The notes under the pieces were generated by a model. That model did not search any database. It had not been told where the DNA came from and worked only from the letters and a program-made list of their open reading frames with translations. The position numbers and the translations under genes are program-made. From sequence record NC_015933.1: a stretch of DNA of 64,000 bases; one strand, 5' to 3'. The stretch's first letter is position 1. Each line of letters starts with the position of its first letter. Source of the DNA: Escherichia phage vB_EcoP_G7C. Shown here piece after piece: positions 18,878 through 21,782 of the stretch.

Positions 18878-20923
18878 ATGAAAATCGAATTGATTTCTAT
18901 CATCGCACTGGCAGTTGACAGTCGAAACCTCACACTGTGGAAGCCAGATGGCTCCACGGTTGTATATCCTCAGAGCGACCCACGGGTTGCTCGTATTGTA
19001 TCTGAAGCACAGACCAAAGGTCTTGGTACTACCCAGGACCAAATAGAAGTAAACATTGCACCAGAAGTAGAGCTACGTACTGAATATCTGGAAGCAGAGA
19101 AGAACACCAACGGATTCGTTCGCTTCTTTAAGGTAGCTAAAGCTAAACTCAAAGAGTTCTTCGAAGATGGTACAGGTGTTTCACCAGCCCGTACCGTTTC
19201 AGATATTAAGCTGGGTAATCCTACTAAGACGCTGGTATCTAAAGCTATGGATACCTTCCTGGCTGTTCAGGCTAATGAACCGGAGGTAACAGTAGCAGAT
19301 GGTTACTACGACAAACGTGACAATCTGATGTGGGTTACTGGCTGGGATAAAGACCATAACCATCTTGCACTGGTTCGTTTTATTAACGACGTACTTTGTT
19401 GGAGTCATAAACATACTGATCTTACTCTTAGACAAGAATGGCCTATTGCAATTCGTGCAGTATCTGACGATGAAATGGGGGAGTTTGCTAAACAAGCTCA
19501 GAACATCAAAGGTGTACACGTTGTATTTACCAATCGTGGGGAAACACCACTGCCTTACGTGGAAGTAGCTAAAACTACGAACCAGGATAAGCTGGCTGCT
19601 GCTTCTGAGAAACTGGCTGCATTGGGTGCTATCAGCACCGATGATGCTAACTTCCACACTGATGTGAAGGAAGATGAAGTGGTTGTTGCTGTTACCAACA
19701 ATGGGGTTATCCCTGGGGTTGAGAACCTGCAACGTCACCTGCGTCAATCTGCCAAACTGAAAGACTACAAGGGCTTTACTAAGTTCCTTGAGCGTCTGGC
19801 TCCGGTTATTAAAGACCGCCTGCACTCAGTGGAAGACCTGATGAAGTTCATGGAAACTGCTGAACTGCCTATCGCTGATGATGGCTCTATCCTGTTTCTG
19901 AAACGCCTTGAGTTCAGAGGTGAAGAAAATGGTAAACGTGTATTCGTTGACTGTCACTCGGGTAACATCCGTCAGTGGGTAGGCTGTAAAGTACAGGTAC
20001 GGGAAGACCTGGTAGACCCTGACCGTCGTCAGGACTGCTCTAATGGTCTGCACGTAGCATCCATGAGTTACATTCGTACCTTCGGTGGTAACGTAACTAT
20101 CCTTGGTAAAGTAGCACCAGAAGATGTATTTGCTGTTCCTGAGTACAACACTAATAAGATGCGTGTAGCTGCGTATCACATTATTGCTGAACTACCGGAA
20201 GAGGAACGTTGCAACGTTAACAATGGCATTTATCTGTCTAAAACAGAAGTGGGTAAGAAACTGCTTAATGATGCCATCGTTGGGAACCATAGTTCACCTA
20301 CCACACTCGTTATGGTTGGTGGGCATCATGGCACTAACCTCAAATACACCAATCTCTCGTCTGGTTCTGTAGAACAGTTCCGTACAGTTGCTAATAAAGA
20401 GGCACTGAATATGGAAGAGTCACTGAATGAAGCTGTAGCTGCTGAACCAGTGAAGGCTACTGACCTTAAACCTATTGTTAATAAGGCTCCTACCGTGAAA
20501 GAACAAATCCAGGAACTGATTAAAGAGTTCCTTAACGCAACTACTCCGGAAGATAAATTAGCTGCTGCTGATTTGCTTGTGGAAATGCGAGGTAAGGCTC
20601 GTAAGCCATGGGCTGCTTTAGGTGTTGGTTCCGATGTGGTATCTAAGATTGCTGATGTGCGTAGTACTCGCATTCCTGCACCGAAAGCTGTACCAGTGAA
20701 GCAAGCTAAGGTTCATCGCTCGGCTACTGCTACTAAGGTAGCACCGTCTGGTAAACACGCTGATAACCTGCGTAGCATCCTGAACGATACGTCCTACTCT
20801 GACTATCAGAAAGGTCATGCTCTACAAGACTATAAGCGTCATGCCAAGAAGTCATTCACTGCAATGGGTCTGACTGAAGAAGAAGCTAAGTTGGCTACCA
20901 AGCTGGCCAAGGCCGTTAAGTAA
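18878..20923 (+). CDS. rIIB: rIIB-like protein (assignment by position after rIIA)
   Basis: Large ORF directly downstream of rIIA-like gene, as in N4-type phages; no motif-level support. Confidence 0.45.
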   Translation: MKIELISIIALAVDSRNLTLWKPDGSTVVYPQSDPRVARIVSEAQTKGLGTTQDQIEVNIAPEVELRTEYLEAEKNTNGFVRFFKVAKAKLKEFFEDGTGVSPARTVSDIKLGNPTKTLVSKAMDTFLAVQANEPEVTVADGYYDKRDNLMWVTGWDKDHNHLALVRFINDVLCWSHKHTDLTLRQEWPIAIRAVSDDEMGEFAKQAQNIKGVHVVFTNRGETPLPYVEVAKTTNQDKLAAASEKLAALGAISTDDANFHTDVKEDEVVVAVTNNGVIPGVENLQRHLRQSAKLKDYKGFTKFLERLAPVIKDRLHSVEDLMKFMETAELPIADDGSILFLKRLEFRGEENGKRVFVDCHSGNIRQWVGCKVQVREDLVDPDRRQDCSNGLHVASMSYIRTFGGNVTILGKVAPEDVFAVPEYNTNKMRVAAYHIIAELPEEERCNVNNGIYLSKTEVGKKLLNDAIVGNHSSPTTLVMVGGHHGTNLKYTNLSSGSVEQFRTVANKEALNMEESLNEAVAAEPVKATDLKPIVNKAPTVKEQIQELIKEFLNATTPEDKLAAADLLVEMRGKARKPWAALGVGSDVVSKIADVRSTRIPAPKAVPVKQAKVHRSATATKVAPSGKHADNLRSILNDTSYSDYQKGHALQDYKRHAKKSFTAMGLTEEEAKLATKLAKAVK

Positions 20924-20985
20924 TAGCCTGTTCAAATGCCCTCACTTATAATAAAGTGAGGGTAAATTTGAAGAGGAAGTGTACT

Positions 20986-21381
20986 ATGAGTTCTGTATAC
21001 AGAGTTAATCGCAAAGCAACTGATGAAGACATCATTCGTATGAATGCTGTTGGTCTATCCCTCGCAACTATCGCTAAGACGTTGGGGGTTCACCCCACTA
21101 CGGTTACTCTGCGATTGCGTTCTTTAAACATTGAACCAGCCGACACACGTCGGACGTTCATGGAGAATGTACTCCGTCCATTACCAACCCATGTGGTAGA
21201 TTGGCTATCAGAGCAAGTTGGTCCTGCTTATGAGATTCGTTCATATGTAAGGGACTTGATTCTGGAGGCATATAATAATCGCCACCTTAACCAAGAGAGT
21301 GAGCATGACAAGTTCATCCGTTTGTACGCTGGAAAACACACGGCAATGGTTTCTAAAAGCCGTACCAAATCCGACGAGTAA
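20986..21381 (+). CDS. Putative HTH DNA-binding protein (131 aa from ATG; track 20956..21381)
   Basis: NAVGLSLATIAKTLGVHPTTVTLRLRSL helix-turn-helix-like segment; GAGGA RBS. Confidence 0.45.
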   Translation: MSSVYRVNRKATDEDIIRMNAVGLSLATIAKTLGVHPTTVTLRLRSLNIEPADTRRTFMENVLRPLPTHVVDWLSEQVGPAYEIRSYVRDLILEAYNNRHLNQESEHDKFIRLYAGKHTAMVSKSRTKSDE

Positions 21382-21760
21382 GAACATTAGTACCCAGATT
21401 GGTTGTCATCTGGAAGAAGTAGAAGAAATGCTTCAGACCATTTATCCAAATGGTAGCTACGATGCAGAACTACTACAACGTGCACAGGATGCCATTACAA
21501 ATCTGGCAAACCATATGAAGCGTAATGACGATGCCTACCGTATTGATGGTAGTACCAACTTGCTGGATGCACTAGCAGACCAGATTGTTACAGCAACTGG
21601 CGTCGGTACTTTCCTTGGGATGAATGTCCCTGGAGCATTGGCTGAAGTCAATCGCTCAAACTATTCCAAGTTCGAAGATGGAGAACCTATCTTCAACGAG
21701 AACAAGAAAGTCATGAAGGGGAAAGATTACACTCCCCCTGATTTAAAACCTTACATCTAA
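21305..21760 (+). CDS. MazG-like nucleoside triphosphate pyrophosphohydrolase; 5-prime end overlaps upstream ORF by about 77 nt
   Basis: HLEEVEEM (EExxE metal-binding motif) and downstream ALADQIVTATGV...EVNRSNYSKF typical of MazG/HisE-like NTP-PPases; start codon uncertain. Confidence 0.5.
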   Translation: MTSSSVCTLENTRQWFLKAVPNPTSKNISTQIGCHLEEVEEMLQTIYPNGSYDAELLQRAQDAITNLANHMKRNDDAYRIDGSTNLLDALADQIVTATGVGTFLGMNVPGALAEVNRSNYSKFEDGEPIFNENKKVMKGKDYTPPDLKPYI

Positions 21761-21782
21761 CCCTCTACGGAGGGTTTTTTAC
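21759..21782 (+). terminator. Intrinsic terminator
   Basis: AACCCTC-TACG-GAGGGTT then TTTTT. Confidence 0.65.

Follow-up and report, generated by a model that had tools for sequence, protein, structure and literature searches.

In the window, by which we mean the whole 64,000-nucleotide stretch of Escherichia phage vB_EcoP_G7C that was analysed, two adjacent open reading frames (ORFs) on the same strand share a stretch of DNA in different frames. The question raised by this locus is whether the two ORFs are separate genes with a long out-of-frame overlap, or a single gene whose halves are joined by a frameshift or were split by a sequencing indel. Both alternatives had been put forward in an earlier, sequence-only reading of this DNA. 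The analysis described here favours two separate, co-transcribed genes, homologues of gp35 and gp36 of phage N4 (gene A and gene B, respectively), that overlap by 77 nt with gene B in frame A+1, and we give this reading a probability of roughly 0.93.

Genomic context and main features

The segment shares 90-97% identity with coliphages of the genus Gamaleyavirus (G7C-like, N4-like), and the window phage is a Gamaleyavirus (G7C/N4-like). Gene A and gene B are flanked by an rIIB-like gene on the 5′ side and by a Dda/RecD-like helicase gene on the 3′ side. The gene order rIIA-rIIB-gp35-gp36-helicase is common to the window and N4, and the synteny of gp35 and gp36 is upheld in all Enquatrovirinae loci examined. 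In the literature searched no published function for N4 gp35 or gp36 was found, nor any discussion of their overlap. The main features of the locus are the following:

20939..20962, + strand: intergenic hairpin CCCTCACTT-ataata-AAGTGAGGG, between the rIIB-like gene and gene A, read from the sequence
20973..20977, + strand: gene A Shine-Dalgarno site GAGGA, 8 nt before ATG 20986, with an anti-SD duplex of -6.7 kcal/mol
20986..21381, + strand: gene A, N4 gp35 homologue, 131 aa, assigned by a profile match to phrog_6377
21293..21299, + strand: gene B Shine-Dalgarno-like site AAGAGAG, purine-rich, inside gene A, with an anti-SD value of -4.2 kcal/mol
21305..21760, + strand: gene B, N4 gp36 homologue, 151 aa, MazG/PRA-PH superfamily, assigned by phrog_671, invariant residues and hhalign
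21759..21782, + strand: intrinsic terminator-like hairpin with T-run, from a terminator scan, right after the gene B stop and before the helicase gene

In N4, Klebsiella phage KP8 and the loci L058 and L060 compensatory changes maintain the stem of the intergenic hairpin; the hairpin has no clear T-run and was not called by the terminator scan. The terminator-like hairpin behind gene B is present in most relatives, and a scan for sigma-70 promoters between gene A and gene B found none. Gene A and gene B are two cistrons of one transcription unit, which lies between the 5′ hairpin and the terminator after gene B.

Gene A, the gp35 homologue

Gene A matches phrog_6377 at 2.3e-73 over residues 1-131 of 131. 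In the sequence-only reading this gene had been started at position 20956, which proved wrong: GTG 20956 sits in the 3′ arm of the intergenic hairpin and lacks a Shine-Dalgarno site, whereas ATG 20986 is preceded by the sequence tttgaagagga, conserved in 17 relatives, and yields the N-terminus MS.VYR.NRKA that is common to all gene A homologues. Gene A starts at ATG 20986, not at GTG 20956.

The protein can be divided into a core with a putative HTH (residues 1 to about 99), the motif EHDKFIRLYAGK of a C-terminal helix at about residues 105-117, and a tail (118-131) that appears unconstrained. Pfam matches to HTH_38 (21.1 bits against a cut-off of 27) and HTH_23 (20.1 bits against 24.6) are weak and sub-threshold; an AF2 model places three short helices at residues 13-46, consistent with an HTH, and further helices up to residue 114, with residues 116-131 modelled at pLDDT<50. 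In an alignment of the gp35 family the core likewise ends at about residue 99 and is followed by C-terminal tails that range from 0 to about 95 aa, the longest of which (about 95 residues, of low complexity) are found in GC-rich Achromobacter phages.

The start codon of gene B

The frame of gene B opens at 21260, and it offers no start codons other than GTG 21299 and ATG 21305 before the catalytic motif is reached. The following start in this frame, ATG 21428 (M42), codes for the last residue of HLEEVEEM (21407-21430), and because it comes after the EExxE motif the start of ORF B is limited to 21299 or 21305. The same limit had been drawn in the earlier reading from the position of HLEEVEEM and of the preceding QWFLKAVPNPT (coded by 21344-21376, within the overlap), both of them upstream of the next ATG, and it holds.

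Start-codon usage was compared across 13 overlap-bearing Enquatrovirinae loci from three genera, comprising the window, N4, Klebsiella phage KP8 and Gamaleyavirus genomes or contigs. The ATG of gene B is conserved in 13 of 13, embedded in the His-Asp/Glu codons of gene A (cATGa). Its Shine-Dalgarno-like site, at -4.2 kcal/mol, compares with a mean of -1.8 kcal/mol at random positions, 15% of which reach -4.0 or lower; in 15 loci (the window and 14 relatives) the site ranges from -3.9 to -6.2 kcal/mol. Stand-alone homologues of gene B in unrelated phages begin 0-2 codons before the equivalent of window residue 8, and since they start near this residue, the N-terminus of gene B is placed by the overlap where it would be expected. 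Gene B thus starts at ATG 21305, with a modest Shine-Dalgarno-like site of its own, inside the part of gene A that codes for the C-terminal helix. The predicted N-terminal peptide is (M)TSSSVCTLENTR, with the leader MTSSSVC..; the literature searched contains no N-terminal proteomics or ribosome profiling for gp35 or gp36 of any N4-like phage.

It is very improbable that the same two overlapping genes exist with gene B initiated at GTG 21299, which would extend the overlap to 83 nt. This codon is in frame and its equivalent is present in Gamaleyavirus relatives, but N4 and KP8 have the ATG without it, and at +0.5 kcal/mol, against -4.2 kcal/mol for the ATG, it has no Shine-Dalgarno site at a usable distance.

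Slightly less credible still is the absence of any real overlap, with gp36 begun at ATG 21428 (M42) inside the gene or at some other start further downstream. Phages KKP 3715 and UE-S5a are annotated with a gp36 of 109-112 aa from an internal ATG, forms of 110 and 120 aa are common in automatic calls, and ATG 21428 is preceded by purine-rich sequence (-3.3 kcal/mol). A protein started at M42 would, however, lack the invariant residues W15, E37, E38 and E41. Residues 8-43, moreover, are 80% identical pairwise among relatives with codon periodicity in the B frame, and distant stand-alone homologues all contain this region.

Family assignment of gene B

Gene B matches phrog_671 ('nucleotide pyrophosphohydrolase') at 3e-32 and MazG-like phrogs at 1e-4. 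Two acidic motifs of the metal-binding type of this superfamily (EExxE ... (E/D)xx(x)D) can be recognized in its product:

21413-21427, + strand: EExxE motif of gene B (E37, E38, E41)
21566-21580, + strand: DxxxD motif of gene B (D88, D92)

Across 27 diverse homologues W15, A19, E37, E38, E41, D88 and D92 are invariant, and P21 and P23 vary little, if at all. The acidic motifs fall in helices predicted by AF2 at residues 28-43 and 84-98, the middle segment (residues 44-86) is hypervariable, and residues 8-24 would, to judge from their conservation, form an integral helix of the protein. The AF2 model, built with 33 homologues, consists of four long helices with a mean pLDDT of 60, falling below 50 in the C-terminal third; a Foldseek search with this model (pLDDT 60) against the PDB returned no match with E<1. 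PDB searches with the single gene B protein and with the 27-sequence profile gave chance matches only, among them the MazG-like DR2231 at E 0.67.

Pfam gave no match to gene B at E<=0.1 and NCBIfam no relevant match; PRA-PH is weakly matched by 5 of the 27 homologues (best E 0.005). The profile of the 27 homologues aligns to cyanophage P60 gp22, named 'MazG', with an hhalign probability of 98.8% (E 9e-17, residues 62-150), and P60 gp22 itself passes the cut-off for PRA-PH (41.9 bits against 21.3) and scores 21.7 bits against a cut-off of 22 for MazG. Like gene B, P60 gp22 and the families PRA-PH (PF01503) and MazG (PF03819) carry EExxE and DxxxD motifs on predicted helices, and the P60 gp22-type pyrophosphohydrolases share with gene B a C-terminal motif SN(Y/W/F)SKF..G.P....GK..KG..Y..P; unlike them, gene B has an extra N-terminal helix (WF.KA.P.PT). 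The earlier label 'MazG-like' therefore needs to be narrowed: the P60 profile match (98.8%) supports it at the superfamily level, that of a predicted all-alpha NTP pyrophosphohydrolase, and at that level only, as Pfam gives no match.

Long, N-extended members of the gp36 family (37 of 150 representatives have at least 200 aa) were considered as possible gp35 fusions and rejected, their extensions being unrelated. One N-terminal extension in this family is glutaredoxin-like by eye and another is an HNH endonuclease.

The overlap in N4 and other relatives

Measured from ATG 21305, gene A and gene B overlap by 77 nt. The same length is found in eleven of the 13 overlap-bearing loci (the window included), and in the remaining two it is 86 nt. 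The stop codon of gene A, TAA 21379-21381, is formed by the gene B codons for S25-K26 (AGT AAG) and is conserved in the 13-locus set; in two loci Gln25 (CAG) of gene B moves the gene A stop 9 nt further downstream. In the N4 RefSeq record NC_008720 the annotated coordinates, 20143..20538 for gp35 and 20462..20914 for gp36, give an identical 77-nt overlap, and the annotation of Bas96 shows it as well. The N4 pair is orthologous to that of the window (74% identity for gp35, 67% for gp36) and resembles it in the 77-nt overlap in the +1 frame, the ATG within His-Glu codons and the TAA within Ser-Lys codons; it differs in having AAGGA instead of AAGAGAG as the Shine-Dalgarno site and in lacking the upstream GTG. 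The overlap is thus already known from the reference annotation of N4 gp35/gp36; it is genuine, but nothing out of the ordinary.

Within the first 53 genes annotated in N4, the same-strand overlap that comes second in length measures 26 nt, and those of 1, 4 or 8 nt form the majority. A 77-nt overlap is unusually long for an N4-type genome, as the earlier reading had noted. Its length as such does not call for selection, an explanation that was considered and rejected: synonymous redrawing of the gene B codons left the A frame free of stops over 77 nt or more in 19% of trials, and with the first 11 codons fixed the probability of an overlap of at least 77 nt was 0.38. As chance permits this length (P 0.19-0.38), the tail of gene A needs no selective explanation. 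The conservation of the overlap across genera, on the other hand, marks it as more than a chance arrangement.

Other arrangements of the same genes are also encountered. In other Schitoviridae with these neighbouring genes the gp35/gp36 overlap is 4 nt (ATGA) in Holyagarpour, 8 nt in L026 and L065, and 11-17 nt in L020 and L024, and it reaches 131 nt in HN04 and 209 nt in JWAlpha. In Vibrio, Shewanella and other phages gp36-like proteins occur on their own. The comparison with homologues that had been proposed as a check on fused or separate genes shows separate overlapping genes with a conserved start in related phages, and the occurrence of the arrangement in N4, Bas96 and the 13 conserved loci supports the long out-of-frame overlap of two genes that had been offered as one of the two alternatives.

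Constraint within the overlap

The overlap can be divided into two parts:

21305..21337, + strand: overlap part 1, gene B codons 1-11 over gene A codons 107-117 (H-D/E-K/R-F-I/L-x-x-Y-A-G)
21338..21381, + strand: overlap part 2, gene B codons 12-26 (first conserved helix, ..QWFLKAVPNPTSK) over the run-on tail of gene A, HTAMVSKSRTKSDE

Pairwise nucleotide diversity was computed for each codon phase from 13 sequences that are related and not independent:

150 nt upstream of the overlap: A position 2/B position 1, 0.06; A position 3/B position 2, 0.385; A position 1/B position 3, 0.135
First 11 overlap codons: A position 2/B position 1, 0.20; A position 3/B position 2, 0.315; A position 1/B position 3, 0.266
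Last 14 overlap codons: A position 2/B position 1, 0.17; A position 3/B position 2, 0.18; A position 1/B position 3, 0.47
Downstream of the overlap: A position 2/B position 1, 0.058; A position 3/B position 2, 0.066; A position 1/B position 3, 0.27

The pattern is of the A type upstream, mixed but leaning towards A in the first 11 codons, and of the B type in the last 14 codons and downstream. Constraint of the A type appears from these values to yield to that of the B type about 33 nt into the overlap, with the remaining 44 nt evolving as B-coding sequence. In part 1 the gp35 family carries the motif (A/E)(H/Y)(E/D)(R/K)(F/H)(L/I)xx(Y)xG, and the C-terminal motif of gene A is shared by Achromobacter phages as well as by L065, whose gene B does not lie over it; the first 11 codons of gene B include the weakly conserved 7-residue leader MTSSSVC... 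The predicted tail peptides of gene A are ...LYAGKHTAMVSK and SRTKSDE. This tail is missing in relatives that carry a homing endonuclease gene and in those of the L065 type, and the last 14 residues of gene A are a dispensable, unconstrained and probably disordered tail.

Frameshifting and sequencing error as alternatives

The two ORFs could form one gene through a programmed +1 ribosomal frameshift within 21260-21381 that yields an HTH-MazG fusion, alone or beside the separate proteins. The B frame is open from 21260, so that ribosomes shifting by +1 at any point of 21260-21381 would make one uninterrupted product. Programmed frameshift fusions are known from lambda G/GT, T7 10A/10B and dnaX, which resemble the present pair in that adjacent same-strand ORFs lie in different frames with an open overlap. 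Unlike these systems, gene A and gene B have neither a slippery site nor a conserved shift site, fused homologues are lacking, and gene B begins at a conserved start codon and occurs as an independent gene in other phages.

Fusion is contradicted by the protein families themselves. The 270 proteins of the gene B family are without a gp35 domain (a gp35 profile run against them, including 37 of at least 200 aa, gave no significant match, best E 0.15), and the best 120 listed gene A homologues all have at most 195 aa. In relatives an HNH gene about 0.5 kb long, with intervening stops, lies between the two genes, or the overlap shrinks to 4-8 nt. At the nucleotide level the overlap varies freely at the third positions of gene B, which leaves no conserved shift site, and gene B carries its own conserved ATG and Shine-Dalgarno site. 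A search of the overlap for X XXY YYZ (-1) slippery heptamers found none, the shift needed being +1, and the RNA structure of 21255-21400 (MFE -28.4 kcal/mol, z = -0.76 against shuffles) is not significant. The chance of such a frameshift is accordingly about as slight as that of a start at M42, and the joining of the ORFs into one gene, the other of the two alternatives in the sequence-only reading, is refuted by the overlaps of 4-17 nt, the HNH-separated genes and the lack of fusions among the 270 gene B family proteins and the 120 listed gene A homologues.

Least probable of all is a sequencing or assembly indel that split one ORF, for instance at one of the two A4 homopolymers within the overlap (21333 or 21355), as an A4 run is short for homopolymer error, each frame appears to have its own signature of purifying selection, and the same two-frame architecture recurs in over 50 phage genomes and metagenome contigs that were sequenced independently, the N4 reference among them.

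Expression of the two genes and comparison with known overlaps

Gene A simply reads on through the coding sequence for the N-terminus of gene B until the codons for Ser25-Lys26 of the latter (AGT AAG) chance to form a TAA in its frame. Because this stop lies 77 nt downstream of the gene B start, ribosomes would be expected to initiate on gene B independently, while others elongate on gene A, and not by termination-reinitiation; elongating ribosomes on gene A would probably limit initiation on gene B. The overlap itself may have no required regulatory role. It appears to be dispensable, since lineages of the L065 type and those that bear an endonuclease have resolved it.

Classical same-strand overlaps in phages include D/E and A/B of phiX174, Rz/Rz1 of lambda and the lysis gene of MS2. 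As in these, one stretch of DNA is read in two frames, the downstream gene is initiated inside the upstream one and constraint is partitioned between the frames. The overlap described here differs from them in being terminal only (25 codons) and in being constrained, over most of its length, by a single frame, and also in that no new protein arises from it, gene A merely gaining a dispensable tail. The locus is a small, clean example of a long overlap that arises without function, by one gene running on.

Consequences for annotation

In several GenBank records and many metagenome calls gp36 is given as a protein of 109-112, 120 or 142-144 aa that begins at an internal ATG, or at a GTG by which the called overlap is shortened, to 47 nt in L058 and 50 nt in L057. 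Gene callers of the Prodigal type limit same-strand overlaps to 60 nt, and the truncated gp36 calls fit this limit. The short forms have lost either the catalytic motif or the first conserved helix; both genes should be retained at full length by annotation pipelines. The value of the observation is mainly practical, and by itself it opens no new biological question.

HNH endonuclease genes between gp35 and gp36

In phage pSb-1 and many metagenomic relatives a gene of about 0.5 kb for an HNH_3+AP2 endonuclease lies between gp35 and gp36. In these relatives gp35 is trimmed to its last conserved residue and ends at 122-123 aa, just past ...YAG(K/N); gp36 begins anew behind the stop codon of the endonuclease, rebuilt with a recoded N-terminus. 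The endonuclease gene inserts in the gp35/gp36 overlap with at least three junction variants. As a side finding, the overlap is in relatives a hot spot for HNH homing endonucleases.

Free-standing HNH homing endonucleases inserted between or into conserved genes are known from T4-like and other phages (for example mobE and segG). The HNH_3+AP2 genes, which belong to the relatives and not to the window, resemble these in being present or absent at one precise site and in having a diverged, 'recoded' stretch of host gene beside the insert; they differ in that the insert sits inside a dual-coding overlap. Tentatively, and because of this insertion polymorphism in relatives, the dual-coding stretch at about 21320-21360 might be the homing site of HNH+AP2 endonucleases, with the window phage representing an empty, cleavable allele, although we consider this somewhat less than an even chance. 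If true, the rigidity of a sequence read in two frames would make the overlap a reliable endonuclease target.

The natural variants, that is the endonuclease inserts and the overlaps of 4-17 nt, map the functional ends of both proteins. N-termini of the endonuclease type are found in about 46 of 120 gp36 clusters, and in L064 the endonuclease is without a start codon of its own and uses the start and the first 15 codons of gp36.

Homing endonuclease genes in the gp35/gp36 overlap

In relatives of the phage, the overlap between gp35, which encodes a putative helix-turn-helix (HTH) protein, and gp36, which encodes a predicted MazG-like pyrophosphohydrolase, is the exact insertion point of HNH_3+AP2 homing endonuclease genes, located in the individual relatives as follows.

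Homing endonuclease genes (HNH_3+AP2) within the gp35/gp36 overlap
L002:1900-2424
L059:1280-1798
L064:1283-1798
L060:1323-1799

The insertions map to about 21326-21360 of the window; no fewer than three variants of the junction and two lineages of the endonuclease can be told apart. The endonuclease ORF of L064 lacks a start of its own and opens with the first 15 codons of gp36 (MTSSSVCTLANTEAW-NDIFTY...). Downstream of the insert gp36 is re-formed with a recoded N-terminus (MSDIITQTKKWF / MISKNNDIITQTQKWF / MQKDTLVDTQNWF), and N-termini of this type are encountered in about 46 of 120 gp36 clusters. In an Enquatrovirinae-like metagenome contig (L065:1446-2253), where gp35 encodes 120 aa ending in RYEGSKDE, the two genes overlap by just 8 nt (aaagATGaaTAAc) at a junction with a strong Shine-Dalgarno sequence, which shows that the long overlap can be lost without gene insertion.

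Annotated gene starts

In four public records of related phages the annotated start of gp36 falls 3′ of the conserved N-terminus, apparently so as to avoid a long overlap.

Publicly annotated gp36
L054:1726-2055, KKP 3715
L055:1729-2067, UE-S5a
L004:1258-1662, KP8
L006:1318-1659, HN04

The HNH gene of phage pSb-1 is likewise annotated short, beginning at an internal ATG.

Flanking hairpins

Two hairpins flank the gene pair.

Hairpins in the window
20939-20962, hairpin in the intergenic region that separates the rIIB-like gene from gp35, with the conserved tatcTTTGAAGAGGA after it
21759-21782, intrinsic-terminator-like hairpin (AACCCTCTACGGAGGGTT) with T-run, starting within the gp36 stop codon

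Because the stem of the first is maintained by compensatory changes in N4, KP8, L058 and L060, this hairpin probably has a function in RNA or DNA (as a terminator, processing or promoter element); it carries no clear T-run. The second is kept in most relatives and sets gp35-gp36 apart as a two-gene unit preceding the helicase gene.

Variation within the gp36 family

Residues 44-86 of gp36 (window 21434-21562) are hypervariable and mosaic among close relatives: mean pairwise identity is 34% here but 80% over residues 8-43 and 94% over residues 87-151. For this reason BLAST matches of the window segment come in two pieces. The pattern resembles the outcome of cassette exchange, or of diversifying selection, on the enzyme's helix 2-3 region. 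Among the best 150 family representatives at 50% identity, 37 are at least 200 aa long. Representatives called as fusions include P0337, with an HNH endonuclease at its N-terminus, P0256, whose N-terminal part looks glutaredoxin-like by eye, and P0305, whose C-terminal part, also by eye, looks similar to an XRE-type HTH. The MazG gene gp22 of Synechococcus phage P60 (L062:141-699), a remote homologue, overlaps the upstream gp21 by 128 nt as annotated.
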